64,000 nt of DNA from an uncultured Candidatus Saccharibacteria bacterium (GTDB taxonomy: Bacteria; Patescibacteriota; Minisyncoccia; Phycocordibacterales; UBA5272). The stretch lies in assembly GCA_964576685.1 (NCBI GenBank), contig CAZNVC010000001.1, positions 3,775-67,774 on the forward strand, written 5' to 3'. The notes below the pieces were generated by a model. The model saw only the letters and a program-made list of their open reading frames with translations. It was not told the DNA's origin and ran no database searches. The position numbers and the translations under genes were made by a program. Positions 2,760-51,952 of the stretch are shown in pieces; the first letter of the stretch is position 1, and each line of letters starts with the position of its first letter.

Positions 2760-2776
2760 GATATTTGCAATAATTA

Positions 2777-3343: not shown

Positions 3344-3348
3344 AGTGT

Positions 3349-15781: not shown

Positions 15782-16552
15782 ATGACAAACGATATCGTTA
15801 TTTCCAGCCTCTCAAAATCGTATGGAACAAAAAAGCAAGTCCATGTTGTGAAAGATGTGTCGCTTACTGTTACTAAAGGTACTGTATTTGGATTTATTGG
15901 CCCAAACGGCGCAGGAAAAACATCTACCATCAAAATGCTTGTAGGGCTCTCGACGCCAACAACAGGCACTATTATGGTAGGTGGAGGATCCCCTTCTGAT
16001 ATGGCAGTGCATAAGAAAATTAGCTTCATGCCAGAATCACCAACGTTCTATCAGTACCTCACAGGTGGGGAGTTTCTTGATTTTGTTGCCACACTCTTTA
16101 GAATTAAAGAAAAGGAAGAAACCATTGCCCGACTACTTGAGGAAGTTCACCTTACTAGTGCAAAAGATAAGCGTATACGCACCTACTCCAAAGGAATGCT
16201 TCAACGTCTTGGGCTCGCTCAAGCGATGATCAATGATCCAGAAATACTTTTTCTTGATGAACCACTTGATGGCCTTGACCCAATTGGGCGTGCCGAGGTG
16301 AAGAAAATAATTCTCGACCTAAAAAAGAAAAACAAGACAATCTTTATCAACACACACATCTTGGGTGATGTCGCAGAAATATGTGACATGGTGGGTATCC
16401 TAGACTTAGGAAAACTTCTTCGAGTCGATACACCGAAAAATATTGCAACAGGTTATCGCGACCTTGAGGATGCCTTTGTGCATATCATCCAAAAAGCACG
16501 GAAAGACGCTGTTGAAAACGTCAACGAACACAAGAAGGATATTATCCAGTAA
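15782..16552 (+). CDS. ABC transporter ATP-binding protein (ABC-2 type exporter)
   Basis: Walker A GPNGAGKTST, signature LSGGxxQR-like YSKGMLQRLGLAQ, Walker B ILFLDEP. Confidence 0.85.
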   Translation: MTNDIVISSLSKSYGTKKQVHVVKDVSLTVTKGTVFGFIGPNGAGKTSTIKMLVGLSTPTTGTIMVGGGSPSDMAVHKKISFMPESPTFYQYLTGGEFLDFVATLFRIKEKEETIARLLEEVHLTSAKDKRIRTYSKGMLQRLGLAQAMINDPEILFLDEPLDGLDPIGRAEVKKIILDLKKKNKTIFINTHILGDVAEICDMVGILDLGKLLRVDTPKNIATGYRDLEDAFVHIIQKARKDAVENVNEHKKDIIQ

Positions 16553-16563: not shown

Positions 16564-17334
16564 ATGAACACGAACATTTTCACCATTGCAAAAAACACTT
16601 TTAGAGAAAGTTCCCGCGATAGAATTCTTCTTTCTGGGTTCTTGGTAATCATCGCCATCATTCTTTTCACCCTCTTCATTGCATCAATTTCGCTAGAACA
16701 AAGCACGAGAATGATCATAGATTTTAGTGTTACCGCTATTTATGCGCTTCAGATGTTTGTGGCAATCTTCATTGGATCAATGCTCATCTATAAAGAAATA
16801 GAGCGTAAGACATTTTATCTTCTCCTTCCAAAACCTATCACAAGAACTGAAATTGTTATTGGTAAATGTTTGGGGCTTTCACTTACCACTATTCTTGTTA
16901 CGCTTCTTTCAACAGGAGCGTTGTATATTATTCTCTACATACAGAGCGGACAATTCTTTTTTTATCCGATTCTTCTTTCTGTGTTTCTTAGCACCCTTGA
17001 GGCAATACTTCTCATTCTTATTTCTATCCTCTTCTCAGGAATTACTTCCCCTATCCTCGCAGCAATCTCTACTATCACGCTCTATCTCGTGGGACATGCT
17101 GGGAGTATCTTTCGCTATATCTTCATGACAAACAAAATCCCTCTTGTTGATTGGATTACTCGTGCCATCTATTATCTTCTTCCGAATCTTGAAAAATTTA
17201 ATATCAGAAACGACATTATCTACGCAACAACACCATCACTCTCAATGGTTGGAGTTACCACACTCTACGCCTTCTCCTATGCGCTACTTCTTCTTGTGAT
17301 CACCCAGATAGTCTTCAAGAAAAAAGATTTCTAG
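16564..17334 (+). CDS. ABC-2 family transporter permease
   Basis: 256 aa, 6 TM helices, immediately downstream of the ATPase. Confidence 0.7.
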   Translation: MNTNIFTIAKNTFRESSRDRILLSGFLVIIAIILFTLFIASISLEQSTRMIIDFSVTAIYALQMFVAIFIGSMLIYKEIERKTFYLLLPKPITRTEIVIGKCLGLSLTTILVTLLSTGALYIILYIQSGQFFFYPILLSVFLSTLEAILLILISILFSGITSPILAAISTITLYLVGHAGSIFRYIFMTNKIPLVDWITRAIYYLLPNLEKFNIRNDIIYATTPSLSMVGVTTLYAFSYALLLLVITQIVFKKKDF

Positions 17335-17361
17335 AACCCTGTCTCTGATTTCCCTTCTCGT

Positions 17362-18225
17362 ATGAAACTCCCAGCCTCTCTCACAAAAAACATTAGTCTT
17401 CTTGTTGTGATTGCCCTTTTTGTGCTGGTGGTCTTATTTCAAAAAATACATGATGATCTTGGGCCACCCTTTACCACGAGACTCACTCTTGCAAGACGCA
17501 ATCTTCTTCCGCCACAAATTCTTCCGTATATAAGTTTTGGATTTACTAATTTGATCACCGACTTCTATTGGATACGTGCTATACAAGACTTCGTGGCATG
17601 GAATGGAAAGGAAGGCTTTTTCATTGGATATTTCAAAAACATCACTACACTTGACCCGAAGTTTGAGTACCCATACCTCTTTAGTATTTTAACTATTCCA
17701 CAAAATAAAGATGTAAAAACACTTGATGTGGTAGCAGGGATTGCACAAAAAGGAATACAAGCAATTCCAACGAGTTGGCAGATCCCTTTCTATCTCGGGA
17801 CTCAATACTATCTCTTTACAAAACACTACGACCCAGCGGAGCAATATCTTGCTCTTGCTGCAAAAAAACCAGGGGCTCCTCAAGGGGCATCACTCGTCTA
17901 TGCAACGTTTGTCTCAAGGACAGTAGGAAAGGGAGTAAGTAGCTACAAAACTTCTCAGGATCTGATAAAAGTAATCTACGATACTACCGACAATGAAATG
18001 ATCAAGAAACTCTCAGGAAAAGGGATACAGGCTGGCGTCGTAACACAAGCACTAGAGAAAGGGATCCTTGCATACAAAACTAAATATCAACGTTATCCAA
18101 AGAATGTTAACGAATTGATTGCCGTTAATTTCGTTTTACTTCCTCAAACCTTACTCGATAATTTTACTATCGAAATCAATCAACGAAACGGGAATTTCAA
18201 GATTGCCGAAAAAGAAGAACAGTGA
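17362..18225 (+). CDS. Hypothetical protein with N-terminal TM anchor (third gene of the ABC-2 operon)
   Basis: 287 aa ORF, one N-terminal hydrophobic helix, no recognisable motif. Confidence 0.45.
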   Translation: MKLPASLTKNISLLVVIALFVLVVLFQKIHDDLGPPFTTRLTLARRNLLPPQILPYISFGFTNLITDFYWIRAIQDFVAWNGKEGFFIGYFKNITTLDPKFEYPYLFSILTIPQNKDVKTLDVVAGIAQKGIQAIPTSWQIPFYLGTQYYLFTKHYDPAEQYLALAAKKPGAPQGASLVYATFVSRTVGKGVSSYKTSQDLIKVIYDTTDNEMIKKLSGKGIQAGVVTQALEKGILAYKTKYQRYPKNVNELIAVNFVLLPQTLLDNFTIEINQRNGNFKIAEKEEQ

Positions 18226-18247
18226 GTAGGGAAAATAGGTGGCTTCC

Positions 18248-18293
18248 TGTCGTTCAACAATAAAACGTTACAGAATTTCTGTAACGTTTTATT
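18248..18293 (+). terminator. 21-bp-stem perfect hairpin downstream of 17362..18225 (putative intrinsic terminator)
   Basis: caacaataaaacgttacagaa-tt-tctgtaacgttttattgttg. Confidence 0.6.
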
Positions 18294-18295
18294 GT

Positions 18296-18372
18296 TGGCG
18301 GACCCACGAGGAATCTCCTACAAGTTTCGTGTCGCCGTCGCTCCACGAATTGGCGGGCCCACGAGGAAATTC
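18296..18372. repeat. Two partial copies of the tRNA-Trp 3' end (GGCGG(G/A)CCCACGAGGAA) upstream of the intact tRNA
   Basis: ggcggacccacgaggaatctcc (18296) and ggcgggcccacgaggaaattcgg (18350) versus the tRNA 3' region ggcgggcccacgaggaatcgaacc (18597). Confidence 0.6.
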
Positions 18373-18597
18373 GGTCACCACTTTGGTATTTTATTTCTTA
18401 ACTTTGTTATTCATAAAACACTCAAAGTCTCGACCCCGTAAAAACCGACAAAAGTTCCAACCAAAAATATTTGAATACAATTTTTATTTGGAACTTTAGT
18501 AGACCGGTTTTTTGTTCGATTCCTCACACCTGTGACCTTGGTCACAGGCTGTGGGCCCGCCCATACAAAAACTCCCCGAAAGGAGTTTTTGTATGGG

Positions 18598-18668
18598 CGG
18601 GCCCACGAGGAATCGAACCTCGACCAACGGATTTGGAGGCCGTTGTTCTGCCACTAAACTATAGGCCC
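18598..18668 (-). tRNA. tRNA-Trp (anticodon CCA)
   Basis: Minus-strand GGGCCTA-TA-GTTT/AGTGGCA/GAAC-A-ACGGC/CTCCAAA/TCCGT-TGGT-CGAGG/TTCGATT/CCTCG-TGGGCCC-G folds as a 71-nt cloverleaf (one 31:39 mismatch). U33 and A37 flank CCA. CCA 3' end not encoded. Confidence 0.7.
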
Positions 18669-18742
18669 GTGTAGAAAGATTCTAACACAAAAGCGGTCGC
18701 TACGCGACCGCTTGTATCTCACCTTCTATACTCAGAAATAAA

Positions 18743-19111
18743 CTAGACCTCAGGTTTCACGATAGTTCTTACATTACCAAGTCCTAAAATGTTTTGCATA
18801 AAGACAATAATTCCCCAGATTGATACCATTACAAAAATAGCAACAAGAGAATACATCATGAATTGTTTTGACTTTGTTAAATTCTCTCCACCCTCTTTAC
18901 CTTTCCAAATAAACATCACAAGACCATAAAAGAAAGTTATCACTGCAAGACCTATCAAAAATGGCACCGCTTGAGATACTAATGCCTGCGCACCACCAAG
19001 TAAATTCTGAAGTGGTGAGATATTCACTTGACCTGGCTGTTGCGCGAAAGCAAAACTTATACCAGCTACAACACTAAAAACAGTACTAATGGCGGTAATT
19101 GATTTTTTCAT
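18743..19111 (-). CDS. VirB2/TrbC-like 'pilin-like' secreted two-helix protein, paralog A
   Basis: Signal peptide ending AFAQQ, then LVSQAVPFLIGLAVITFFYGLVMFIWKGKEGGENLTKSKQFMMYSLVAIFVMVSIWGI (hydrophobic hairpin with basic WKGK loop). Confidence 0.6.
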   Translation of the reverse strand: MKKSITAISTVFSVVAGISFAFAQQPGQVNISPLQNLLGGAQALVSQAVPFLIGLAVITFFYGLVMFIWKGKEGGENLTKSKQFMMYSLVAIFVMVSIWGIIVFMQNILGLGNVRTIVKPEV

Positions 19112-19195
19112 ATTTTTATCTATACAAAAAGTATATAAGCTATATATATAACGCAAGCAGGAAGTCCCCTGTTTTTGATGAATAAACAGAATACC

Positions 19196-19240
19196 AGGTG
19201 CAAGAGAAAAGCGACGCCGTAGGTGTCGCTTTTCTTCTAA
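19196..19240 (-). terminator. Intrinsic terminator downstream of rpmG
   Basis: aaaagcgacgccgtaggtgtcgctttt hairpin followed by a T-run on the minus strand. Confidence 0.55.
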
Positions 19241-19258
19241 GTGTGTATGGAAAAGAGT

Positions 19259-19420
19259 TTACTTCTTTGTTTCCTTGAACATCACGTGTTTACGAAGCTT
19301 CTTTGAGTACTTCTTGAGTTCAATCTTACGGGTAACAAGCTTCTTATTTTTAGAAGTGAAGTAGACCTCGCCTGTTTCCTTATTTTTCAATTGGATAAGA
19401 TTATCTTGTGCCTTTGCCAT
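19259..19420 (-). CDS. rpmG: 50S ribosomal protein L33 (Cys-less form)
   Basis: Hand translation MAKAQDNLIQLKNKETGEVYFTSKNKKLVTRKIELKKYSKKLRKHVMFKETKK (53 aa) fits the L33 pattern (T.KNK......ELKKY....KH....E.K). Below the ORF-track length cutoff. Confidence 0.65.
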   Translation of the reverse strand: MAKAQDNLIQLKNKETGEVYFTSKNKKLVTRKIELKKYSKKLRKHVMFKETKK

Positions 19421-19468
19421 AGTTGTGTGATTGTAGCATGAAAATAAACAAGAATCAAGAAGATATTT

Positions 19469-20866
19469 CTAACCAAGCTTCTCTGAAAAGTACTGTATAA
19501 GATCGCTGATGGGGACGCGTATTTGTTCCATAGTATCCCTGTCTCGTACTGTTACCGCATTATCAGTGAGGGTATCAAAGTCCACCGTAACACAATATGG
19601 TGTTCCTATCTCATCTTGCCTGCGATAGCGCTTACCTATTGACTGAGTATCGTCATATTCTACGAACATTTTTTTAGAAAGTGTCTTCCAAATTTCTTGC
19701 GCTTTTTTGCTTAACTCTTCCTTCTTAGAAAGCGGGAGGATTGCCACCTTCACAGGAGCAAGTCGCTTGTCTAACTTAAGAACAGTACGAGTGTCGTCCC
19801 CGACAACTTCTTCAGTATATGCATTATCAAGGAATGCGAGCATCATACGTGCAACACCAACAGAAGTCTCCACGATATGTGGTACAAAGCGTTCCTTGGT
19901 TGACTCTTCAAAGTAAGAAAGATCCTGTCCAGAGAACTTCGCATGTTGAGTAAGATCCCAATCGCCACGAGCATGCACCCCTTCTAATTCCTTGAAACCC
20001 CCAAGCATCGCATAGTGATACTCTATGTCATACGCTTCACTTGCATAGTGTGCAAGCTTTTCATGTTTGTGCCAATTAAGTTTTGACTCTGGAATACCGT
20101 ATTCGAGATAAAAATTCCATCGATCACGATGCCATCCTTCGAAGATTTCTTTCGTCTGTGATGGATGATGAAAGTACTGCATCTCCATCTGCTCGAACTC
20201 ACGTGTACGGAAAACGAACTGCTTCGCAACAATTTCATTACGAAAAGCCTTACCGATCTGTGCGATACCAAACGGAAGCTTTGGGTGAAGCGAGTCGATA
20301 GTATTCTTGTACTCAAGATAAATACCCCCACATGTTTCTGGTCGTAAGTACACCACATTCTCTTCGGTGAGCGCATCTGTTGGCGAACCAAGATTAGACT
20401 TTACCATAAGCGAGAACACCTTTGCTTCAGTTAAGTCTGCACTTTTACAGTTGGTACATACAAGCTTCTTCTCTCTACGAAGTATATCGAGCTCTGTATT
20501 GATCCATTCAAGAGATTGCTTATCAGCATCAATACCGAACTCTTCGAGCATATGATCAGCACGAAAGCGACTCTTACACTTGCGACAGTCAACTTGTGGA
20601 TCATTGAACCCATCAATATGGCCAGATGCCTTCCATGTTGTCGGGTGCATGAAGATAGCACTATCAAGAAGTACCACATCGAGACGCTCTTGGGCAACGC
20701 TCTTCTGCCAAGCATTCTTCACGTTCGCAAGGAGGAGAGTTCCATAATGCCCGTAGTCATAGACACCAGAGAATCCTCCATAAATTTCTGATGATGGGAA
20801 AATAAATCCTCGACGTTTGCAAAGGGAAACTATTTTTTCCATCCGTTCTTGATGTGATTCGTTCAT
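19469..20866 (-). CDS. glyQS: Glycine--tRNA ligase (dimeric archaeal/eukaryotic type)
   Basis: 465 aa. GFIFPSSEIYGGFSGVYDYGHYG ... class II aaRS motifs ... anticodon-binding C-terminus. Confidence 0.85.
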   Translation of the reverse strand: MNESHQERMEKIVSLCKRRGFIFPSSEIYGGFSGVYDYGHYGTLLLANVKNAWQKSVAQERLDVVLLDSAIFMHPTTWKASGHIDGFNDPQVDCRKCKSRFRADHMLEEFGIDADKQSLEWINTELDILRREKKLVCTNCKSADLTEAKVFSLMVKSNLGSPTDALTEENVVYLRPETCGGIYLEYKNTIDSLHPKLPFGIAQIGKAFRNEIVAKQFVFRTREFEQMEMQYFHHPSQTKEIFEGWHRDRWNFYLEYGIPESKLNWHKHEKLAHYASEAYDIEYHYAMLGGFKELEGVHARGDWDLTQHAKFSGQDLSYFEESTKERFVPHIVETSVGVARMMLAFLDNAYTEEVVGDDTRTVLKLDKRLAPVKVAILPLSKKEELSKKAQEIWKTLSKKMFVEYDDTQSIGKRYRRQDEIGTPYCVTVDFDTLTDNAVTVRDRDTMEQIRVPISDLIQYFSEKLG

Positions 20867-20927
20867 ATCGGCTTATTCTAACACAATGTAGGCGATAGTT
20901 GATAGATGGCAGGTGTGAGCAAAAAAC

Positions 20928-20960
20928 ACTACAGCATGACCACTTCGTGGTCATGCTGTA
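20928..20960 (-). terminator. Intrinsic terminator (CATGACCACTTCGTGGTCATG hairpin)
   Basis: cagcatgaccacttcgtggtcatgctg; same ACCACTTCGTGGT core as at 10655 and 59340. Confidence 0.6.
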
Positions 20961-21000
20961 TCTACATTCTCTCTACCCACCGAAACCCATCACCTCTTAA

Positions 21001-21255
21001 TTAGTAAGTAAACATCCCTCCGAGGACGTCGTTGAAAAATTTAAGTATCCCTCCGACTGAAAAAATAATAAGGAGTCCAACTGTCCCCCAAAGTAGATGG
21101 CGCTTACCAATATTTTTCTTTTCTGGATCATTCATATCAATAATGAATCGCACCCCTCCGTACAAAAAATAAACAAAGGCACACGCTGCGACAAGTTCGT
21201 AAAGCGGACTGAATACTTCTGTAACAACTCTTCCTAATACATCTTCGCCATTCAT
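21001..21255 (-). CDS. Pilin-like two-helix membrane protein, paralog B (no signal peptide)
   Basis: 84 aa. LVAACAFVYFLYGGVRFIIDMNDPEKKNIGKRHLLWGTVGLLIIFSVGGI has the same hairpin architecture. Confidence 0.5.
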   Translation of the reverse strand: MNGEDVLGRVVTEVFSPLYELVAACAFVYFLYGGVRFIIDMNDPEKKNIGKRHLLWGTVGLLIIFSVGGILKFFNDVLGGMFTY

Positions 21256-21291
21256 GTAATGATAAATAAATTAAATATATGATACCTCTTA

Positions 21292-21894
21292 TTACTTTGC
21301 TCCCTCACCTGGTAAATTGAATCCAGATATACTTCCTCCTTGCCCTATGCCAAGTATTCCTCCAATAAAGGTGATAATCCCCCACAACGATACCATCACG
21401 AAGATAGCAAGAAGAGAATACATCATCCCTGCACGGCCTTTCTTCTGCTCTTCTGGATTATCCTTTCCTTTCCAGATGAAGGTAACGAGGAACCAGAAGA
21501 ATACGACGACAGCAAGACCAACAAGAAAAGGAACGAGTCTGCTCACAATAGTCTGAGCAAGCGCTAGAAGGCCAAGAGGCCCACTAAAATTAAGATTGGT
21601 GCCGACAGAACCGGTGCCTCCACCTATGCCTATATTCCCGCTCCCCCCTATTCTTACCCCGCCTATTGTTCCTGCACCGCTCACTGTACCAGTATTAACA
21701 TTACCGCTCACACCAGTGCCGTTACCTGTAGTTACTTGCCACTGCCCTGTGGTCTGATTATAACAAGCAGGCTTACCATTATACGTTCCACATATTTGTC
21801 CAAGATTCACCTTCACATCCCCTACCTGTAACTGTGCTGACGCAAAAAAAACACTACTAACAATGAGTGAACATGCTAGTAGTGTTTTTTTCAT
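21292..21894 (-). CDS. Pilin-like secreted protein, paralog C (Gly-rich insert)
   Basis: 200 aa. Signal peptide FASAQ; TGNGTGVSGNVNTG...GIGGGTG; core LVPFLVGLAVVVFFWFLVTFIWKGKDNPEEQKKGRAGMMYSLLAIFVMVSLWGI. Confidence 0.6.
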   Translation of the reverse strand: MKKTLLACSLIVSSVFFASAQLQVGDVKVNLGQICGTYNGKPACYNQTTGQWQVTTGNGTGVSGNVNTGTVSGAGTIGGVRIGGSGNIGIGGGTGSVGTNLNFSGPLGLLALAQTIVSRLVPFLVGLAVVVFFWFLVTFIWKGKDNPEEQKKGRAGMMYSLLAIFVMVSLWGIITFIGGILGIGQGGSISGFNLPGEGAK

Positions 21895-21917
21895 AGGACT
21901 AAATACTTACCCGATGA

Positions 21918-22319
21918 TTATTGTGTTGGCACTGGAACACCAGGAACTGGAACACTACCACCTTGACCAACACCAAGTATACTTCCGAGGAAACCAACAA
22001 GTCCCCAGATAGATACCATCACAAAGAGTGCGAGAACTGCATACCCCATACCAGAAAGTGAACGTGTCTTTGCTGCAGCATCATCACGACCTTTCCAGAT
22101 GAACTCAATAAGGAACCAGAAGAATGCGAGTACTGCAAGACCGATAGCAAAAGGAACGAGACGTGCTACTAGTGTCTGTGCAAGCGCAAGGAGAGAGAGA
22201 AGTGCTCCTCCATTTACTTGTCCTTGTGACGCCCCAACGTTGATAGTTCCTGATACCTGTGCGAGGGCAACAGCGACGTTACCAGCAATAAGAGATAAGG
22301 TTGTTAGTATTTTTTTCAT
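21918..22319 (-). CDS. Pilin-like secreted protein, paralog D
   Basis: 133 aa. Signal peptide VALAQV; LVARLVPFAIGLAVLAFFWFLIEFIWKGRDDAAAKTRSLSGMGYAVLALFVMVSIWGL. Confidence 0.6.
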   Translation of the reverse strand: MKKILTTLSLIAGNVAVALAQVSGTINVGASQGQVNGGALLSLLALAQTLVARLVPFAIGLAVLAFFWFLIEFIWKGRDDAAAKTRSLSGMGYAVLALFVMVSIWGLVGFLGSILGVGQGGSVPVPGVPVPTQ

Positions 22320-22619
22320 ATATTTTATGTGTATATCTATAAGTATAGCCTTATATCAAGCGTTTGCAAGGGAGGATGTGGACAAAGGGGTGGCGTTAGG
22401 CGTTAGAGAAAATTGTAATGGAGTTATATATTGGAATACAAGTATTTTGTGTTGGTATGTAAAAAGCTACACGCTAAAGGCTAATAGCTACCGGCTACCA
22501 AATAAAAAAAGAGAGGCTACCTCATCGCGTCATCGCGATGAGACGATGAGCGAAGAGGATAACCTCTCCTGCCATAGTACGTTTGGCGAACGGTTTATAC
22601 GTGTTGTCTCACGGGAGAA

Positions 22620-22865
22620 TTAATGTTTCTCTCCACCATCATCCTTTTTCTTGGGCCTAAGCAACAAAATAAAGGCAGCAAGAATCAGGAATGCGCCAGC
22701 GTGGGTACGCACCATAGAGAGAAGGTTTCCCATTGCGTTGGTAAAAATATCCAACACTCCGGAGAAAAGGAGGACAATCACGAGGATACCGTATCCCCAT
22801 GCCTTGCCAACTCCGCTTCCACCTCCTCCATGGCCGTGGTCGTCCTTCTTTTTCTCATCTGACAT
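22620..22865 (-). CDS. Small membrane protein (Gly/His-rich N-terminus, 2 TM)
   Basis: Internal start MSDEKKKDDHGHGGGGSGVGKAWGYGILVIVLLFSGV... (81 aa). Confidence 0.45.
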   Translation of the reverse strand: MSDEKKKDDHGHGGGGSGVGKAWGYGILVIVLLFSGVLDIFTNAMGNLLSMVRTHAGAFLILAAFILLLRPKKKDDGGEKH

Positions 22866-22875
22866 AATATCCTCC

Positions 22876-23700
22876 TTAGTTGAGAATGATTTCCCCGCCA
22901 TCTTCGACCACCACTTGGATGGCCTCACCACGGCGAGAGTTGATGTAGTCGGTACATTGGCGCAGGGTAAAATTCACCCCATCAATGTCACCGCACCCTC
23001 TGAAGTTTCCAGGAGTGACCTCCTCACGGAACACGTATCCGTGTCCGACAAGGCTCTTGACGTAGACGTCAAGTTTGATCCATGCACACCCAGAGGTGAT
23101 CCGGTACTGGGTACCGGGTTGCTGGGCACGCTGGATTTGGTTTTTCTTGAACCCCTCATCACGCTCCTCTCTTGTCACACAAGAGAACGTACGGAGCACG
23201 ACAGGATCCTGTGGAACCACAGGCGCCACTACTGGAGGAGACGCAACCGCCGAAGGGGCTGGCATCGGAACAGGTTGCCCTGTCCTTGCTGCGATACGCA
23301 TCTGCTTCGTCGTTTCCTCCATCTGCTTGGTCTTTTCCTGCTCCTTCACCTTCTCGAACCCCGCTTCTTCAAGCTTGGTACGATTGGGCCTGGCGTCGGT
23401 GACATAGAAGATAGTTGCACCGATAAGCGCAAAAAGTGCTGCAATGGCACGGAGAGACCCCAACCAGTCGAAGCTTCGACCACTAGAACCACCTCCACCA
23501 CTTCCACCACTACCAGTCGGAGTAGAAGGCGGGGGCGTACCCCCAGCAGTCGGAGCTGCGGGAGTTGCGGGTGTAGCTGGAGTGGCACTGCCAGCACTGG
23601 AAGATCCAGCACCAGAAGCACCCCCCGCGCTCGCACGTGCCGCACGAGCGATAACAGCAGCCGCTTGTTCAGCAGCGATTTCTTCTTGGCGCGTGGCCAT
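22876..23700 (-). CDS. Hypothetical membrane-anchored protein encoded in a GC-rich segment (Ala/Gly/Pro/Thr-rich N-terminus, TM helix, Cys-containing C-terminal domain)
   Basis: 274 aa. The minus-strand product has protein-like composition (TM FDWLGSLRAIAALFALIGATIFYV; C-terminal CVTRE...GCAWIKLDVYV...RGCGDIDGVNFTLRQC). The opposite-strand ORF 22651..23721 is Arg-rich junk. Confidence 0.5.
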   Translation of the reverse strand: MATRQEEIAAEQAAAVIARAARASAGGASGAGSSSAGSATPATPATPAAPTAGGTPPPSTPTGSGGSGGGGSSGRSFDWLGSLRAIAALFALIGATIFYVTDARPNRTKLEEAGFEKVKEQEKTKQMEETTKQMRIAARTGQPVPMPAPSAVASPPVVAPVVPQDPVVLRTFSCVTREERDEGFKKNQIQRAQQPGTQYRITSGCAWIKLDVYVKSLVGHGYVFREEVTPGNFRGCGDIDGVNFTLRQCTDYINSRRGEAIQVVVEDGGEIILN

Positions 23701-23874
23701 GAGAATCCTTTCAAAAATTAGTCAAAGAGCCGTTAACCTCTCTTCCTCTTATACAACAAGGAATAAGAAGTCCTTGAAGAGCACTCTACACGATAAATCT
23801 ATATTTGTCAAGCTTTTTTATATCAACTTAAATTTCATCGAACCCCCCTTCAAAAAAATTCACATGCAAGCCTA

Positions 23875-24732
23875 TTACGGAGTTATTTGAGCATCGTACG
23901 ATGGATCAAGAGAACAGCCAGACGCTGCCTGATCATCAGGAAGATACCCTACCGGACAAGAGCCACTATTTCCGACACTGCCGTATGATGGATCAGGTGA
24001 ACAGCCAGACGCTGCCTGATCATCTGGAAGATAGCCTGTAGGGCATGAGCCTGTACTCCCTCCTGTATTCGCCGTCCCCCCATTTTGCCCAGCTGTACTA
24101 TTCGTTATATTACGACACTCAATAACTCCTCCTCCACTTGCAATACACTGATCAAAAGCAGCATTACCTGTCGGCCCCGTCACCGGACTCACCCCACCCC
24201 CTCCAAGAGGAGAAGTATTATTCCCTCCAGCCGCGTTATTAAGAGGACCGGTGTTATTTGGATTATTAGGATTATTAGGATTAGCTTTGGAAGATTGTCC
24301 GAAGTTGATACCTGGGATAGTGATGGTATTAAAGTCAGTGCCTGGCATGATAATGTTCTGAGCGAACTTGATGATACCGTAGACAGAGAACATTACAAAG
24401 AGTGCAATGAGTCCCCAGGTCATGAATTGATTACCATTCTTTGTCTTCTCGATATTTCCTTGGCGTCTTCCCCAGATGTATTCAACAATACCGTAGAAGA
24501 AGGCTACTACTCCTGCTGCCATGAAGAGTCCTCCTAGAGCTTTCATAACTGTGGTAGTGAAAGCATTGATGATTCCTCCTAGGGTACCTATTCCTTGTGC
24601 TGCGGTACATCCTGTAGCAGTTGGAGTAACACTACAATCAACTTGTGCGTGGAGTGTGAGTGGTGAGAGGAGAATGAACAACAAAAAGAAACTAGTAAGG
24701 AAGATACCAGTGGGGGTGGAAGATTTTTTCAT
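23875..24732 (-). CDS. Pilin-like secreted protein, paralog E, with C-terminal tandem SCPxGYLPDDQAASGCSxDPSY repeats
   Basis: Start MKKSSTPTGIF; signal peptide LTLHAQV; core LGGLFMAAGVVAFFYGIVEYIWGRRQGNIEKTKNGNQFMTWGLIALFVMFSVYGI; two C-terminal 22-aa repeats. Confidence 0.55.
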   Translation of the reverse strand: MKKSSTPTGIFLTSFFLLFILLSPLTLHAQVDCSVTPTATGCTAAQGIGTLGGIINAFTTTVMKALGGLFMAAGVVAFFYGIVEYIWGRRQGNIEKTKNGNQFMTWGLIALFVMFSVYGIIKFAQNIIMPGTDFNTITIPGINFGQSSKANPNNPNNPNNTGPLNNAAGGNNTSPLGGGGVSPVTGPTGNAAFDQCIASGGGVIECRNITNSTAGQNGGTANTGGSTGSCPTGYLPDDQAASGCSPDPSYGSVGNSGSCPVGYLPDDQAASGCSLDPSYDAQITP

Positions 24733-24887
24733 AATTAAGCAATTAATTGTATACAACAACAAGTGTACAAAGAGTCAGTAAAAAGGGCAAGGAGTAACGA
24801 GATGGCAGGTGCTTGTGCACCATGATTCCCATAAATACCAAAACATCATTGGGGAGAAAAGTGTAAATAGTAAAAAACACAATCTAG

Positions 24888-26264
24888 CTAGTGACAAACT
24901 CTGTTCCACCCAGCAAAAATACAGTTATTAGAAGCACAGTCGTCGTTAACAGAACAGTATTCTCCGTAAGCTTTTTTTCTAGTAGTAATAGGCGCTGGGG
25001 TATTGCAAAGTATTCGGTAGTCTGACTGATTATAGTACTTGTTCTTACCATCTGGACATAAACGTCCCGCAACACATGTACCATTGTCCATAGTACCTTC
25101 GTTACCATCTGAGGTAATGCACGGGTCATTGTTTACCGCTTTTACACATGACATGCTTCCATCACTGCCACTTTTACATGTCCCAGAGACAGACCCCGAA
25201 CTATCGGTAACAGTACATAATGTTCCTGCTGGTTTTCCATTACAGTAATATGAGGTGTTAGTAGAACCTGCCCCACGACCAGAAAGACAAGTCTTTCCAT
25301 CTGCTCCAACTATACCAGTAGAACCATCAGGAAGCTTACATGCTGAATTCGTCTGACCATCTATTGGTGCCGGTCGAGTATTGAGTGTTCCTGAGGTGTT
25401 GGCAGTATTATTTTGTGCGGGTGGGGTAGTGGTCGTGGTTGTGGTGTTCACCCCTTGGAACCCAGGAAGAATCTTTTTCACTGTTCCTTGTGCTGCAATG
25501 AGGAACATCTGAAGCATAAAGATAAGAAGCGTTGTAAACACTGCCCAGAGTAACCATTTTTTTGCCTTACTTAACCCCTCTGGATTACCTTGTGCCATCA
25601 CGAAACCAAATCCAGTCCATACCCAAATAGCAATAAGCGCCGGATAGACAAAGAATCTCATGATGATACGAAGCATGGAAAGAATAAAATCATAGAGACT
25701 GCAGATCCCTGTCATATTGAAAGGACTGTTGCATGCAGACGTAGGTGGGGTAGTAGTTTGCGCATATGCGTGAGGAATAAATGCATCACTAAACAACTTA
25801 AGAACTTGTAGAGGTCCATCTTTTACACCAAAATACTTAAGCATCACATACATGAGCCCCCCAAAGAGAGCGACAATAAAGAGGAAGCCTATGGTAGCAT
25901 TAAAAGATTTTTTCAATGCCTCTTTATATGCATTAGCATTTCCTTGTTGAAGTGCAAACCAAGCCATGACAAAGCGGTAGGTAATGAAGACTACAAGAAG
26001 CGGAAGTCCAAGACCAATCACGTACGTAAGTAAGTTTTTCGTGACAACTCCTATCTTATTAATATCGCATGGATTGACTATTGCCCCTTTCCCCCCGTTA
26101 GCACTTGGATCCCACGCTCCACAAACCTCATCTCCAGAAATTGATTTTCCTCCCGTCTGTGCGTATGTGTAAAGTGGTGTCACCGAAATAAGAATCAAAA
26201 AAATACCACAAAGAACTGGGAGAGTTCGTAAAAAATGTGGATGTCGTTTCAGAAAATTTTTCAT
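24888..26264 (-). CDS. Large pilin-like protein, paralog F: two tandem VirB2-like hairpin modules plus Thr-rich linker and Cys-rich C-terminal domain
   Basis: 458 aa. Module 1 ...AYAQTGG...LPLLVVFITYRFVMAWFALQQGNANAYK...FLFIVALFGG. Module 2 ...HAYAQTTT...ALIAIWVWTGFGFVMAQGNPEGLSKAKKWLLWAVFTTLLIFML. C-terminal >20 Cys. Confidence 0.55.
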   Translation of the reverse strand: MKNFLKRHPHFLRTLPVLCGIFLILISVTPLYTYAQTGGKSISGDEVCGAWDPSANGGKGAIVNPCDINKIGVVTKNLLTYVIGLGLPLLVVFITYRFVMAWFALQQGNANAYKEALKKSFNATIGFLFIVALFGGLMYVMLKYFGVKDGPLQVLKLFSDAFIPHAYAQTTTPPTSACNSPFNMTGICSLYDFILSMLRIIMRFFVYPALIAIWVWTGFGFVMAQGNPEGLSKAKKWLLWAVFTTLLIFMLQMFLIAAQGTVKKILPGFQGVNTTTTTTTPPAQNNTANTSGTLNTRPAPIDGQTNSACKLPDGSTGIVGADGKTCLSGRGAGSTNTSYYCNGKPAGTLCTVTDSSGSVSGTCKSGSDGSMSCVKAVNNDPCITSDGNEGTMDNGTCVAGRLCPDGKNKYYNQSDYRILCNTPAPITTRKKAYGEYCSVNDDCASNNCIFAGWNRVCH

Positions 26265-26269
26265 AACAG

Positions 26270-27583
26270 CTACTTCTTGGAATACAGATCTCTCATACGC
26301 GCTACAAACAGGTTCGAGGCATCGTTAACACCGTAACGATAATTAATAATATCTGAAATCATTGTCGTCGTATATGCAGTTGACTCCCTCTCATGGCTAT
26401 CATACCAACCGTGCGCAACGAGCATCCCTCGTGCCACCACTGGATCAAGCCCCTGTGTAGCAGCGTATGAACGAAGTGCAGGAGTGGCACCAACGATCGC
26501 CGCAATGGACGGCGCAACACCAGCACCTGCGAACTGTGATTCCGCAGTAAGTGCAGTGGTAAGATTTTTTGATGCTTTAAGGGTGGCTATTGCATACATA
26601 CTCATTCCAGTTACCAAAGTATTGTACCCCCGTGTCTGTGGGAGACTTGTCATCCCAAAATCAGCACGAGGGTTACGAGCACGAAGTGTTGGATACTCTC
26701 CTGCATATCCAATATACATTGCAAGCTTCTCCCCTACGAAGAAATCAGTTGCATTTCCAAGAGAATCTGACCATGTGAATGTAGTTTGACCAGGGTCACC
26801 AAATTGTGTAAAGAAACGGTTCGTCGTCGCAAGCGGTAAAATCTCCCCTCCTTCTGTTGCAGGAGTATTAGCTACTACACTAAAATAGCTTTCTCCTCCT
26901 TGAGCCATAATTCGTACAACAGGTGCTTGACCGAGCTGTGCAATAATCGACATAATAATGTCTTTTGCATAAGGAACTCCTGGTGTACCAAGTGCAATAG
27001 CTGACTCAAGGAATTTTCCATTCTGACGAACAGTAAGCGCAGGGGTGATTGTGCCAACTTCATCCCAATACGAAGGAGGGTTGATAATCCCGTGCTTAGA
27101 AAGTAATGTACGATTATAAAAGAGCACCATCGGATCAATAGAAACAGGAAGAGCAAGTGCCCCTTGTGGGGTAAAAAGCACAGAAGCACCATCAACGAAT
27201 GTATCTTTAAATGTCTTTTCTGGAAGGCTGTTCGTAGGGAACGGATAGATTCTTGCTTCCTGTGAAAGAATCATCTGATATTTACCAATAATCATATCTG
27301 GTCCTGTACCGGAAGCGAGCGCCTCAAGAAGACGCTGATTAAACTCATTTTCTGGAACATACGTATATCGAACAGCATAGGTCTTAGCTTGAGGGTTGAA
27401 AGACTGAACAACCGCATTCATTTCTGACTCAGGAAGCGTCCCCCAGAGCTGTACCTCCCCTTGAGCGGTCACATCCTTTCCTCCAATAGAAATTTTTCCA
27501 GAAAAGATAAGGACAGCAAACAATGTGGCGAAAAGCCCAACGCCAAGCAAGATATTACGTAATGAAAACACTGAAGAATGCAT
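26270..27583 (-). CDS. Extracellular solute-binding protein (ABC transporter substrate-binding protein, family 1-like)
   Basis: 437 aa, N-terminal signal/TM, size and composition typical of SBP_bac_1 proteins. No sequence-specific motif confirmed. Confidence 0.45.
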   Translation of the reverse strand: MHSSVFSLRNILLGVGLFATLFAVLIFSGKISIGGKDVTAQGEVQLWGTLPESEMNAVVQSFNPQAKTYAVRYTYVPENEFNQRLLEALASGTGPDMIIGKYQMILSQEARIYPFPTNSLPEKTFKDTFVDGASVLFTPQGALALPVSIDPMVLFYNRTLLSKHGIINPPSYWDEVGTITPALTVRQNGKFLESAIALGTPGVPYAKDIIMSIIAQLGQAPVVRIMAQGGESYFSVVANTPATEGGEILPLATTNRFFTQFGDPGQTTFTWSDSLGNATDFFVGEKLAMYIGYAGEYPTLRARNPRADFGMTSLPQTRGYNTLVTGMSMYAIATLKASKNLTTALTAESQFAGAGVAPSIAAIVGATPALRSYAATQGLDPVVARGMLVAHGWYDSHERESTAYTTTMISDIINYRYGVNDASNLFVARMRDLYSKK

Positions 27584-27742
27584 TGGACACAGTATATAGG
27601 TTTTATATGGTAAGGACTAGTGGATACACGAAATACTGCCTTCATCTTGTAGTGATTAGTCACTGCAGAATGCAAGCACAACCTTCAATCACACTCGTGT
27701 TTATATAGCTAAAGGCTAACGGCTACTATCTACGAGCTGTCC

Positions 27743-28267
27743 TTACGAGCTTATCGCTAGAAACGCGTAATGATAATCCCCCGCTGGAAGGCGCTTCAAA
27801 AGTCTAAACCCGTGCGCCTGTACAAGCGAAATAGCATGTTCTTCTTGTACCACATGTGACGCATGAGGACCTATTCCTCCATGAGAATCAGTCCAATCAA
27901 CTACGAGCAATTGTCCTTCTGGTTTTATGAGTTTACTTATTACAGAAAGCGCTTTATCAATATCTTCTAACTGAAAAAGAATATTCGAAATCACAACCGC
28001 ATCAAGACTATACGCATCAACCGGTACCGCTTTCTCTACATCTGCCCACAGCATTTCGACATTAATGATTCCTCGTTTATCAAGAGTTCCTGCAAGTGTG
28101 TGGAGTGCCTCTCGGTGCACATCTACTGCATAGACCTGCCCCATATCACCAACATCATGAGCAAGTGCTATGGTATAGACACCAGTACCACATCCAATAT
28201 CGGCAACTCTATCACCTGGTTTCAAATATAATTCTTTCACGAGATGTTCTGGAGTAAGAAATGACAT
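27743..28267 (-). CDS. Class I SAM-dependent methyltransferase
   Basis: Motif I VADIGCGTGVYTIA; internal start MSFLTPEH chosen. Confidence 0.7.
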   Translation of the reverse strand: MSFLTPEHLVKELYLKPGDRVADIGCGTGVYTIALAHDVGDMGQVYAVDVHREALHTLAGTLDKRGIINVEMLWADVEKAVPVDAYSLDAVVISNILFQLEDIDKALSVISKLIKPEGQLLVVDWTDSHGGIGPHASHVVQEEHAISLVQAHGFRLLKRLPAGDYHYAFLAISS

Positions 28268-28378
28268 AAGGGTAGTATATAGGGAATGATTAATTGTTAA
28301 TAGTGGATACACGATAACCTCAATACACCACATTGACATAGAGAGTGATATAGACTACTATGACTGACGTCAGACTCT

Positions 28379-28639
28379 TTGCCATGTTACCAAAAAGGAC
28401 GGAAAATGGATATCGAGAATGAAAGAGATAAAGTCATCAAAGTCTTTGAAAAATCAAGAGGAATCATGTTGATTATGAATAATCACAAGGTTCTCGACGC
28501 AACAAATTCTGATGTGCTGGCATGGATCTATCCTGACAAAAACAAACCTGTTGGCAATGAGCAAGAAGTGCTCATGCGGTATGAGGAATTCTTAGAAAAA
28601 TTTCCAGAGCAAAGATTTTTTTTCTACAGATTTCCATAA
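28379..28639 (+). CDS. Hypothetical small protein
   Basis: 86 aa ORF only; no motif. Confidence 0.3.
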   Translation: MPCYQKGRKMDIENERDKVIKVFEKSRGIMLIMNNHKVLDATNSDVLAWIYPDKNKPVGNEQEVLMRYEEFLEKFPEQRFFFYRFP

Positions 28640-28711
28640 TACCAGCAAGCCGTCACCATAATCATGGCGACGGCTTTTACTTTACCTTCAATAATTAATA
28701 ATTAAAGAGGG

Positions 28712-28745
28712 TGAAACCCAAAGAGCGACGCCTTCGGCGTCGCTC
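28712..28745. terminator. Intrinsic terminator hairpin downstream of gyrA
   Basis: aaagagcgacgccttcggcgtcgctctt (UUCG loop). Confidence 0.6.
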
Positions 28746-28832
28746 TTACTGTGCTTTTCACACACCTCTTGAATATTGTAGTTTTCCGCGACAGTCTGCA
28801 TGATCTGCTTCAGTCTGCGAAGTTAGTACCTT

Positions 28833-31307
28833 TTAGAGTAGATTAAATGACGCAAGCGAATCTCCGTCACGAAGCTTCATAATTCTCACTCCTTGTGTAT
28901 CACGACCAAGCGTTGGAATAGATTCTACTTCAGTACGAATCACTTGTGATTCTTTCGATACAGCAAGAAGCTCTTCATTTTCTACCGTCACAACGCGCGC
29001 AACCATGAGCTTCCCAGTTTTCTCAGTTACCTTCACAGTCTTAATTCCAGATCCTCCTCGCTTCTGAATCTTATACTCAGAAATCTTTGTCTTCTTTCCA
29101 AAGCCGTTAGCAGTCATAATAAGAAGTTCAGCATTTTTTGTGCCTGTTGGGATCTTATCTGCCGCCACGATGACATCCCCTTTATCAAGTTTCATTCCTA
29201 TGACCCCAGCTGCGGTACGACCCATTTCGCGAACGTCATTATGATTGAAACGAATAGACTGACCATTTTGAGTGGTGAGTATTACACTGTCTTCATCACG
29301 AACAAAAAGCGCAGAAAGGAGTTCATCTTTTTCTTCAAGACGAATTGCAATGAGACCATTACGACGAACATCTTTGAAACTCTCAGCTGAAGACTTCTTC
29401 GTAGTACCATCTTTGGTGATCATCATAAGTGACACGCCTTTCATTTCTTTTATATCCTTTGGCATCGGAAGAATAGAGGTCACCTTCTCCCCTTCAGTGA
29501 GTTGGAGGAAATTCATAATACTCTTACCACGGGTTGCACGCTTTCCTTCTGGAAGATCATACATCTTCATCTGATATGCCTTTCCTTTATCAGTAAAGAA
29601 GAGAAGATCAGAGTGCGATGAAGTAGTGAGTGACATCGTCACGAAATCCTCTTCTTTAGTATTCAAATCAACAACCCCTACACCACCACGCTTCTGTGTA
29701 CGGAACTCAGATGGATCGGTACGCTTTACATAACCACCAGATGTATAGACAAGCACTTCTTCTTTGTCAGCAATGAGATCTTCTGGATTAAATTCTTTAG
29801 CTTTATGCTTCACAATCTTCGTGCGACGCTCATCGCCATACTTCTCTTTTATTTCTCCAAGCTCTCCCTTAATAATAGAGAGCATTTTCTTTTCTGACTT
29901 GAGAATTGCCTGAAGCTCTGCGATGAGTGCTTGTACGGCCTTCAAATCATCTTCAATCTTCTTACGTTCGAGTCCAGCGAGACGCTGAAGCTTCATTTCA
30001 AGAATTGCAGTTGCCTGGATATCAGAGAACTTCCATTTCTTAATAAGTTGAGCATGAGCGTCAGGTGTATCTTTTGATGCGCGAATGGTCTTAATAATTT
30101 CATCGATGTGATCAAGCGCTTTCTTAAGTCCAAGTAAGATATGTTCCTTCTCAAGAGCACGCTTAAGATCAAACTCTGTACGACGACGCACTACTTCCTT
30201 TCTATGACCAACGAATGCTTCGAGCGCACCCTTAAGTGCAAGGGTCTGTGGAATCCCGTCAACAAGCGCCACTACGTTATAGTGGAACGTGCTTTCGAGT
30301 TCAGTATGCTTATAGAGATAGTTGAGTACCTTCTGTGGCTGAGTACCACTCTTAAGATCAATCACTACACGGATATCCTTCGTTGATTCATCACGAAGTC
30401 CTTTGATACCTTCAATCTTCTTATCACGTACAAGGTCAGCTATAGTTTCAATCAAGTTACTCTTCACAACACGAAAAGGAATTGAAGTGATAATAATCTG
30501 GAACTGACCATTCTTTTGTTCTACAATTTCTGCTTCCCCTCGTACCACCACACCACCACGACCAGTTGCATATGCAGCACGAATATCCGACTGACCAAAG
30601 GCAATACCCCCCATCGGAAAATCTGGACCTTTAATATGTTCACAAAGCTCTTCAGTCGTTGCTTGAGGGTTATCAATAAGATGTACCGTCGCATCGATTA
30701 CTTCACGAAGATTGTGTGGAGGGATGTTGGTCGCCATACCAACAGCAATACCAAGTGTTCCATTAAGAAGAAGATTAGGAACAGCAGTTGGAAGCACTCG
30801 AGGTTCTTTCTTGGTGCCATCGTAGTTAGGTTCCATCTGGACTGTATCTTTTTCAATGTCACGAAGCATTTCCATTGAGAGTTTCGACATCTTCGCTTCG
30901 GTATAACGATACGCAGCTGCTCCATCACCGTCAATAGAACCAAAGTTACCTTGCCCCATTACGAGTGGATAACGATACGAAAAATCTTGCGCAGATTTCA
31001 CCATCGCATCATACACAGACGCATCACCATGAGGGTGATAGTTACCGAGTACGTCTCCAACAATTGTTGCTGACTTACGGAACTTAGCCCCAGGGGTAAG
31101 CCCCATGTTATTCATAGAAAAGAGAATACGACGATGTACTGGCTTAAGTCCATCACGAGCATCCGGCAAAGCACGAGAAGTAATCACACTCATCGCGTAG
31201 TCGAGGTACGCAGTACGCATTTCTTCTGCGATACTTACCGCTTGAAGTCCAGTTCGAGGCACCTCAGGTTCCTGTATTTCTTCTTTGTGTGGTGTCTTTT
31301 TTGCCAT
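28833..31307 (-). CDS. gyrA: DNA gyrase subunit A
   Basis: 824 aa. [17 protein letters not shown]...[21 protein letters not shown] (active-site Tyr) and C-terminal beta-pinwheel repeats. Confidence 0.9.
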
Positions 31308-50991: not shown

Positions 50992-51435
50992 TTAGCGAGT
51001 TGCTGAAATTGTCATTCCTTGCTCTGGGAACTGTGCCTCTACATAGATACGACTTGCTGCTGTCCTTGACACTCTGTACCCTGCACCATTTGCATCAGTC
51101 TTTTGTGGTTCTGAAGGAATAGAAACGACGTACTTAGGAATAAGCACTGAGAGATCTACAAGACCTGAACATGAAGCTGCTCCTGTAGCACAGATTTCAG
51201 TTGTTGTTGCAGTGATTCCTGTTGGCAATGTTCCATTATTATCAATAGAATACTGGGAGATTGCGTTAAGAATAGTGTTAACGTCTGACTTTCTCTGTGC
51301 GTTACGTGTATCACCAAGTTGCTTGTTTGGGTTAATAGCAACAATAACGATACCTGCAAGAATAGCGATAGCTGCAACCACGAGAAGGATTTCAATAAGT
51401 GTGAATCCTTTCTGGTTACGTAGTATGTTTTTCAT
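50992..51435 (-). CDS. pilA: Type IV major pilin (copy 1)
   Basis: Identical to copy 2 over the first ~110 codons and last ~14 codons; differs in a ~25-codon C-terminal segment. Internal start MKNILRNQ used. Confidence 0.85.
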   Translation of the reverse strand: MKNILRNQKGFTLIEILLVVAAIAILAGIVIVAINPNKQLGDTRNAQRKSDVNTILNAISQYSIDNNGTLPTGITATTTEICATGAASCSGLVDLSVLIPKYVVSIPSEPQKTDANGAGYRVSRTAASRIYVEAQFPEQGMTISATR

Positions 51436-51517
51436 AAATATAAAGAATGCTAACCAAATTAAAATAATAATAACGACACAAGTCAAACATTTCCTCTCTA
51501 CTGAGTATAGCAGACAC

Positions 51518-51949: not shown

Positions 51950-51952
51950 TAA

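Follow-up and report, generated by a model that had tools for sequence, protein, structure and literature searches.

A chromosomal array of two-helix pilin-like genes kept with gyrA and a solute-binding-protein-like gene in Paceibacteria

INTRODUCTION

Arrays of small pilin-like genes are a known feature of the Patescibacteria (Candidate Phyla Radiation, CPR), and together with the type IV secretion systems (T4SSs) of these bacteria they belong to the small number of systems whose essentiality in epibiotic growth has been demonstrated (PMC10633639, PMC11665869). A six-pilin array is essential in Southlakia epibionticum ML1 (Wang 2023, PMC10633639; review PMC12857230), and 441 arrays of 2 to 11 divergent VirB2-like pilin genes have been reported from 383 patescibacterial assemblies (Quinonero-Coronel 2025, PMC12102498). 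The latter survey found virB4 in 2,417 of 3,035 assemblies and VirB2-like pilins in 1,948 virB4-carrying assemblies, 1,135 of which have genes of the Pfam family PF18895 (T4SS_pilin) near virB4; in Paceibacteria virB4 lies near dnaA/dnaN, and the patescibacterial T4SS is nested in the monoderm mating pair formation class MPF-FATA (PMC12102498). Here we describe a cluster of six paralogous pilin-like genes (p458, p285, p133, p200, p84 and p122) in a 64-kb stretch of DNA, called the window below, from contig CAZNVC010000001.1 of an uncultured member of the Patescibacteria. We find that the locus is a conserved chromosomal pilin gene set of Paceibacteria and not a foreign island. Since pilin arrays have already been published (Wang 2023, Quinonero-Coronel 2025), the locus is modest as a discovery; what appears to be undescribed in the pilin-array literature is its class-wide linkage to gyrA and a gene for a solute-binding-protein (SBP)-like protein, a double pilin in which an internal A-x-A site is conserved, and a gene pair (p274 and p103) with an anomalous GC content at third codon positions (GC3).

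The published arrays, among them the "Sec-secreted array" of TM7x, resemble the one described here in that PF18895-type genes with Sec-type leaders stand in tandem or are split by non-pilin genes, in that pairwise identity is low (mean 25% and maximum 54% in the published set, about 17 to 62% here), and in that they are chromosomal and without a relaxase (PMC12102498). They are most abundant in Microgenomatia and Saccharimonadia and are described there with no mention of gyrA or an SBP gene, whereas the present array is found in Paceibacteria at a fixed place by gyrA, a methyltransferase gene and the SBP-like gene, with no virB4 in the vicinity, and one of its products is a fused double pilin. 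By its description, the ML1 array likewise encodes about six small, structurally alike and sequence-divergent pilin-like proteins in a monoderm CPR bacterium. That array lies inside the T4SS cluster SEML1_0006-0019 and its essentiality comes from transposon sequencing (PMC10633639), whereas the present one has no T4SS gene nearby.

The classical TrbC/VirB2 pilins (Agrobacterium tumefaciens VirB2 and RP4 TrbC) share with the proteins studied here a small size, a Sec leader ending in A-x-A/Q (the slash marking the cut) and a pair of hydrophobic helices linked by a short basic loop. They differ in that no significant sequence or profile similarity connects them to our proteins, in that no virB3 or virB4 follows the genes here, and in that several members here are enlarged by tandem modules or by long extracellular stretches at the N- or C-terminus. 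The family of pilin-like conjugal transfer proteins from integrative and conjugative elements (ICEs) of Mycoplasma (NCBIfam NF045849; Mbov_0395/MMCAP2_0565) has in common with our set a hairpin of about 80 residues, which aligns over nearly the whole model, and a monoderm host; in contrast, the genes here stand beside chromosomal housekeeping genes and not on an ICE, and their products stay below the 40-bit cutoff of that family. Archaeal Ced and Ted import systems have VirB2-like two-helix pilins (CedA1, TedC) in a T4SS-related machine without a relaxase, possibly used for import, and they encode a VirB4-like ATPase beside the pilin genes.

RESULTS

Six paralogous proteins of the T4SS_pilin family

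The initial annotation had proposed six paralogous genes for secreted two-helix proteins, and pairwise BLASTP ties all six, which lie on the minus strand at the positions given in Table 1, into one family. The proteins p133 and p200 are 62% identical (E = 8e-28); p122 matches p133 with E = 5e-27 at 42% identity and is 58% identical to p200; p285 matches p122, p133 and p200 with E-values of 1e-10 to 1e-15 and p84 with 2e-9; and p458 is tied to p285 (E = 9e-5) and to p84 (E = 1e-3). The size range, first given as 122 to 458 aa, has to be corrected to 84 to 458 aa, and the shared signal peptide cut at A-x-A/Q is present in five of the six, the 84-aa member having no signal peptide. The five leaders are lysine-rich and hydrophobic and are predicted to end in AFA/Q, ASA/Q, ALA/Q, LHA/Q and TYA/Q, where cleavage would take place. 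Hydropathy and AlphaFold2 (AF2) models give two long helices with a short K/R-rich loop between them, following the signal peptide where there is one, and agree with the plan of the PF18895 module (about 70 aa, two transmembrane [TM] helices and a short polar loop). The basic loop, described initially as FIWKGKD, reads FIWKG[KR][DE] in p122, p200 and p133 and YIWGRRQ in p285, and the Gly-rich tail was found as GxGQGG in p133 and p200. The number of cysteines is even in every mature pilin-like protein, which would fit disulfides formed outside the cytoplasm.

PF18895 is the best or second-best Pfam match for all six proteins. Its gathering threshold of 26.6 bits is exceeded by p84 (40.3 bits, E = 3.4e-10) and p200 (27.4 bits), and p458 (19.1 bits), p133 (17.3 bits), p122 (15.2 bits) and p285 (13.9 bits, E = 0.058) fall below it; among 43 single-module relatives the model matches 35, with a best E-value of 1.4e-14. 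NF045849 matches four of the six, namely p84 (E = 1.5e-5, 24.6 bits, 69 of 80 model positions), p200 (E = 5.7e-5, 22.7 bits), p285 (E = 0.023) and p458 (E = 0.06), as well as 29 of the 43 relatives (best E = 9.4e-10). None of the window proteins reaches the 40-bit equivalog cutoff, so that the similarity is significant and the proteins are not equivalogs. This similarity fits the published MPF-FATA affinity of the patescibacterial T4SS (PMC12102498). The idea of an expanded family was borne out when a profile of seven modules was run against 1.84 billion representative proteins: 16,088 clusters (50% identity) match at E ≤ 1e-3 and 3,530 at E ≤ 1e-10.

None of the six proteins matches the type IV pilin family N_methyl (PF07963). 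A separate type IV pilus cluster is present in the window on the minus strand (50992..58319), with a PilB-like ATPase (56640..58319), a PilC-like T2SSF protein (55213..56634), an 817-aa protein (52472..54925) and two N_methyl prepilins (51953..52471 and 50992..51486).

A gene block conserved from GyrA to the pilins

Scanning one genome per GTDB species gave 78 related loci, labelled Paceibacterota, Nomurabacteria or Parcubacteria, each with 1 to 8 pilin-module open reading frames (ORFs), typically 4 to 6. In 64 of them, which are all of the loci that have the SBP gene (64 of 64), genes for GyrA, a methyltransferase, the SBP-like protein and 4 to 8 pilins follow one another in the same direction. 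The SBP orthologues are 25 to 73% identical (50 to 73% in the near clade) and lie just upstream of the pilin genes, with a distance of up to 30 nt between the SBP stop codon and the pilin ORF after it in about 39 of the 64 loci. Co-direction holds even where the identity of the SBP has fallen to 25 to 35% and that of GyrA to about 60%, in loci labelled Kaiser-, Adler-, Vogel- and Campbellbacteria. Three long contigs (559, 494 and 254 kb) share the order of the window through GyrA, methyltransferase, SBP, pilins, glycyl-tRNA synthetase (GlyRS), L33 and tRNA-Trp, and continue, as the window does, with GAPDH, RpiB, Rpe and transketolase.

GyrA served as the yardstick of conservation; GlyRS was dropped, its identity being bimodal. 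Compared with L020-L047, a set of related loci, the GlyRS of the window is 83 to 89% identical in some genomes and 48 to 53% in others, with GyrA at 84 to 92% throughout, and this pattern suggests a xenologous replacement of glyQS within the clade.

In the SBP-like protein an N-terminal membrane anchor precedes an SBP_bac_1/SBP_bac_8 domain (Pfam SBP_bac_1, E = 8e-13; the match to a MalE-type NCBIfam model is weak). Its gene ends 5 nt before p458, and the unit should be enlarged to include it.

Layout and probable transcription units

All real genes between 18.6 and 27.6 kb are on the minus strand, and the six pilin-like genes lie within 7.5 kb (Table 1). In the direction of transcription the order is SBP-like gene, p458, p285, p274, p103, p133, p200, p84, a terminator, glyQS, rpmG, p122, a second terminator and tRNA-Trp, which agrees with the initial observations that rpmG and glyQS are interleaved with the pilin genes and that a tRNA-Trp gene adjoins the cluster. 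The gap is 23 nt between p133 and p200 and 36 nt between p200 and p84. Together with the terminators, the gaps suggest the transcription units SBP-p458, p285, p274-p103, p133-p200-p84, glyQS-rpmG and p122. Terminators and not promoter-like sites were taken as evidence of transcription; a promoter-like site near p133 (22369..22342) was given no weight, since such sites are as common in shuffled sequence. An Rfam scan of 17000..29000 returned the tRNA as its sole match. Six contigs that carry p133 are 99.9 to 100% identical to the window and are uninformative on strain variation.

Table 1. Positions of the genes, protein segments and RNA features of the cluster, counted from the first nucleotide of the window
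Feature	Position	Strand	Remark
SBP-like protein, 437 aa	26270..27583	-	first gene of conserved block
p458, double pilin, 458 aa	24888..26264	-	
p458 hairpin module 1, after leader TYA/Q	25806..26075	-	
p458 linker with AYA/Q site	25758..25769	-	
p458 hairpin module 2, before Thr-rich linker	25452..25718	-	
p458 beta-rich domain, 14 Cys	~24891..25367	-	
p285, pilin with repeat-bearing Cys tail, 285 aa	23875..24732	-	
p274, single-pass membrane protein, GC-rich gene, not a pilin, 274 aa	22876..23700	-	
p103, small two-TM protein	22620..22865 from likely start MSDEKKK (81 aa)	-	partner of p274
p133, candidate major pilin, 133 aa	21918..22319	-	
p200, p133 paralogue, 200 aa	21292..21894	-	
p84, leaderless pilin module, 84 aa	21001..21255	-	last gene of putative p133-p200-p84 operon
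Intrinsic-terminator-like hairpin, 14-bp stem and T-run	20930..20960	-	closes putative p133-p200-p84 operon before glyQS
glyQS	19469..20866	-	
rpmG	19259..19420	-	
p122, extra pilin paralogue, 122 aa	18743..19111	-	between rpmG and tRNA-Trp
Terminator of p122	18691..18713	-	
tRNA-Trp (CCA)	18594..18669	-	

A motif of 19 to 26 nt, GCTAAAGGCTAAYRGCTAC, occurs at 22473..22498 and 27708..27733, with just these two copies in 64 kb and none expected by chance; both have the same orientation, and they precede p133 by about 155 nt and the SBP gene by about 125 nt, respectively. The exact 12-mer GCTAAAGGCTAA from this motif is in none of the fetched related loci and is carried by same-strain contigs alone. 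We do not claim a regulatory role for the shared 19-nt motif, since it was not found in the relatives.

Single-module pilins

The protein p133 consists of a leader (ALA/Q), a hairpin with an FIWKGRD loop, and a GQGGSVPVPGVPVP tail. Conservation within the set is highest in this pilin, with 58 to 83% identity across many Paceibacterota metagenome-assembled genomes and 33 invariant columns in an alignment of 30 sequences, and its AF2 model is a helical hairpin (residues 35-76 and 81-115; predicted local distance difference test score [pLDDT] 72). Being the most conserved and undecorated, it is the candidate major pilin. In p200 a Gly-rich extension of about 85 aa stands between the leader (ASA/Q) and the hairpin, and the identity to p133 is that of the core; a counterpart of the same length was seen in the related locus L007 and not in L009 or L011. 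Orthologues of p84 are 54 to 62% identical and likewise have no signal peptide, and an ORF of about 83 to 110 aa closes most arrays in the relatives.

No positional orthologue of p122 is present in L007, L009 or L011, where tRNA-Trp follows rpmG after 88 to 215 nt. A stretch of 62 nt is 82% identical between p122 and p200, and p122 is a lineage-specific insertion, probably copied from p200 or p133. The protein p285 has a leader (LHA/Q), one pilin hairpin and a low-complexity, Cys-containing tail, in which the tandem SCPxGYLPDDQAASGCSxDPSY repeats noted at the outset are indeed present in two copies (DNA 23895..23973 and 23982..24060, 82 to 86% identical). Its orthologues are 35 to 45% identical and differ in their Cys-rich tails.

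The double pilin p458 and its fused relatives

That p458 holds two modules is supported by PF18895 matches in two stretches and by the AF2 model, with helices at residues 68-106 and 112-144 and again at 190-223 and 228-265, separated by a disordered linker (155-183). The C-terminal domain, for which more than 20 cysteines had been reported, has 14 of the 19 cysteines of the protein, and residues 300-400 are modelled as a beta domain (pLDDT about 88) without a PDB match. Among orthologues the two-module core (about 250 aa) is retained and the Cys-rich tail is highly variable. The linker has an A-Y-A/Q site, in which position -1 is A and position -3 is A, V or T in all 29 orthologues; x-A-[YHF]-A is found in the linker of 22 of 22 near-clade double pilins (genome loci), and a three-module relative (P0122) has AYAQ after modules 1 and 2.

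Larger fusions were seen as well. Five proteins of the family (P0275, P0251, P0252, P0254 and P0273) have 5 to 8 tandem hairpins, the largest with 820 aa and 8 modules, and we met no description of such poly-pilins, with 5 to 8 fused modules, in the pilin-array literature. One related locus encodes TIG domains ahead of a single pilin module (L096:6821-8929); decorated pilins thus occur elsewhere.

The GC-rich pair p274 and p103

The gene of p274 had been singled out as GC-rich and foreign-looking. The first part holds (GC 0.57 against 0.42 for the window), and for the second there are counterparts of matching position and architecture in relatives. From an N-terminus rich in Ala, Gly, Ser and Pro the protein passes into a single TM helix, then a charged helix and a Pro-rich linker, and it ends in a domain with 4 Cys. 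The GC content at second codon positions is 0.88 in the N-terminal part because this part is rich in Ala, Gly and Pro. GC3 is 0.61 over the C-terminal 199 codons and 0.55 in the 103-aa ORF of p103, against 0.28 to 0.40 in the neighbours. No Pfam or NCBIfam family matches p274, and a homologue search returned only the protein itself, the word index being saturated by the low-complexity N-terminus. A weak blastp match (23 to 33% identity) was found in 7 of the 78 related loci. In the same slot, L009 encodes proteins of 271 aa (with the architecture of p274) and 75 aa and L011 a shorter pair of 103 and 74 aa, and the GC3 of both pairs is somewhat above that of their neighbours. Judged from these comparisons, p274 and p103 are a resident and fast-evolving part of the cluster, and our guess, as the most economical one, is that their GC3 stems from allelic replacement by recombination from a relative of higher GC.

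Surroundings of the cluster

Just past the tRNA-Trp gene, its 3' end is partly repeated in direct orientation at 18295..18315 and 18350..18370 (2 and 3 mismatches over 21 nt; none expected by chance), and an interrupted inverted copy lies at about 18545..18562. The slot past tRNA-Trp holds a DUF5667 gene in relatives; here it holds, on the opposite strand, genes for an ABC ATPase (15782..16552) and an ABC-2 permease (16564..17334) and an unknown 287-aa ORF (17362..18225). The copies and the changed slot may be the footprint of integration events on the side away from the pilin genes.

In the region 3..4680, the left edge of the window truncates a minus-strand ORF (at least 927 aa) for a secreted protein with seven cytochrome b5-like domains, next to a second cytochrome b5 protein (2777..3451) and a membrane flavoprotein resembling ferric reductases and NOX (3349..4680). 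To judge by its domains, this set looks like an extracellular electron-transfer module, which would be unusual for a CPR genome without a respiratory chain. A plus-strand gene at 47932..49446 encodes 504 aa in which an N-terminal HTH_3 domain is fused to a full-length domain of the EPSP-synthase/MurA type.

DISCUSSION

The explanation that we favor, and consider rather probable, is that the array encodes Sec-exported two-helix pilins of a VirB2-like filament, served by a putative T4SS encoded elsewhere and with the SBP-like protein as a partner. Membership in PF18895, paralogy, the hairpin fold, synteny and gene spacing like that of operons are shown above; the mechanism built on them is proposed. 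Five of the pilins would be exported through Sec and cut by signal peptidase I at A-x-A/Q, and p84 would probably insert without a signal peptide. In the membrane each module would form a hairpin whose two ends face outward and whose basic loop faces inward, which would place the Cys-rich tails outside, where disulfides can form. The subunits would then be extracted and polymerized into a VirB2-like filament or conduit by a T4SS of the patescibacterial type, related to MPF-FATA and encoded elsewhere, with p133 as the major subunit, p200 and p122 as its variants, p84 as a leaderless subunit, and p285 and p458 as minor or tip subunits with variable Cys-rich adhesin-like domains. The SBP-like protein, presumed to be co-transcribed, may be an extracellular partner that binds, for example, host-derived glycans or solutes. 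A role in contact or exchange with the host cell is likely.

It is possible that p458 is split at its internal A-Y-A/Q into two pilins. The conserved linker site could be a retained signal-peptidase I site, which would make p458 a pilin polyprotein, a tentative reading toward which we lean slightly less than away from it.

The link to VirB2 consists of a shared architecture and of published gene neighborhoods; the proteins belong under PF18895, and membership in TrbC/VirB2 is not demonstrated. The match to VirB2/TrbC proposed in the initial annotation stands for the leader and the two-helix architecture and does not extend to sequence. An alignment of seven genuine VirB2/TrbC proteins, taken from conjugative plasmids, has A45, A47 and Q48 invariant, which is the A-x-A-Q leader end, and the nonsignificant hhalign alignments with these proteins run helix to helix in register. 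By analogy, the PF18895-type proteins described here probably work like VirB2.

Several results weigh against a T4SS-driven filament of this kind. The TrbC/VirB2 model PF04956 gave no match at E ≤ 1 for the window proteins and matched 0 of the 43 relatives, and hhalign against the seven reference proteins, with three increasingly diverse profiles, gave probabilities of 0.2%, 0.8% and 0.6%. A PDB hmmsearch with the family profile of p133 found no pilin, and Foldseek found no PDB match at E ≤ 0.001 for the AF2 models of p133 and p458, hairpins being too generic to discriminate. The absence of VirB4/VirD4 machinery noted initially holds for the whole 64-kb window, which has no other T4SS genes either, every ORF of at least 150 aa having another function, the one truncated at the left end included. 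In the 78 related loci, the large ORFs scanned up to 10 kb to either side of the arrays include no T4SS gene; the scan covered one representative per cluster among Walker-A ORFs with 450 aa or more and ten other large ORFs and left out about twenty singleton ORFs without a Walker A motif. The ORFs scanned encode IF-2, ClpB, FtsH, HsdR, UvrA, RecG, DnaB, helicases and metabolic enzymes, and one of 600 aa has no Pfam match. The virB/trb operon context, with VirB3 and VirB4 adjacent, is not found either; the neighbors are the SBP gene, glyQS, rpmG and gyrA, here as in the relatives. As to p458, about 20 residues separate its internal A-Y-A from the TM helix before it, a long distance for signal peptidase I. 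Finally, some family members with 3 to 8 fused hairpins have no A-x-A in their linkers, and a membrane-resident protein fits such fusions more easily than an extractable pilin does.

These points can be put together in another way, which is the main rival. The hairpins could be resident membrane proteins, inserted through Sec or YidC, that oligomerize there or anchor variable extracellular domains and that form, with the SBP-like protein, a surface module for capture or uptake, conserved by gyrA in Paceibacteria, that works independently of any T4SS. The lack of T4SS genes among the large ORFs scanned near the arrays, the invariant coupling to the SBP-like gene, the members with 3 to 8 fused hairpins (P0275, P0251 and P0252) and the lack of detectable homology to VirB2 would all agree with this, and the Cys-rich or TIG extensions fit surface display. 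We nevertheless regard it as unlikely, if well worth keeping in mind, given the significant similarity to the conjugative-element pilin family NF045849, the published closeness of PF18895 genes to virB4 in 1,135 of 1,948 assemblies, the essential array inside a T4SS locus (PMC12102498, PMC10633639), and the fact that the block has no ABC permease or ATPase as a partner for the SBP. A bolder reading, which we find distinctly doubtful, is that the block of gyrA, methyltransferase, SBP and pilin genes is a distinct and unnoticed surface organelle operon found throughout the Paceibacteria, which may act without the dnaA-linked T4SS and couple a VirB2-like filament to the SBP for the capture or import of host material, with p458 as a polyprotein cut by signal peptidase; such a block could have escaped notice because its most conserved subunits lie below the usual thresholds of hidden Markov models.

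Two further explanations were suggested by the initial annotation itself. One is that the six ORFs are unrelated hydrophobic low-complexity membrane proteins, alike by chance; in its favor, four of them score below the PF18895 gathering threshold, and helical hairpins are generic folds. However, the pairwise BLASTP E-values go down to 1e-27, the module profile retrieves thousands of clusters at E ≤ 1e-10, and orthologues keep both order and sequence, so that we give this explanation practically no chance. That the cluster is an island acquired horizontally at tRNA-Trp, with foreign cargo, is very improbable. The adjacent tRNA gene, the GC3 of p274 and p103 (0.55 to 0.61 against about 0.33) and the partial copies of the tRNA 3' end nearby do point that way. 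Against this, the block and its housekeeping neighbors are syntenic in 64 of the 78 loci, from different species, tRNA-Trp follows rpmG in the relatives too, an adjacency that is ancestral, and the ORF scans brought up no integrase family. The sole tRNA-derived repeats are 3' of the tRNA, on the far side from the pilin genes, whose own GC3 of 0.28 to 0.37 is normal for the genome. As p274 and p103 have positional orthologues, at most that pair was exchanged by recombination.

In conclusion, the Patescibacteria are host-dependent, and to what is known of their pilin arrays this locus adds a defined array from Paceibacteria in which orthologues are clearly assigned and in which a candidate major pilin that is conserved stands beside decorated pilins that vary and one pilin that has no leader. 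The obligate SBP-like partner and the fixed address by gyrA are handles for phylogenetic profiling against virB4 and for biochemistry, and the conserved internal signal-peptidase-like site of the double pilin offers a testable hypothesis of its processing.

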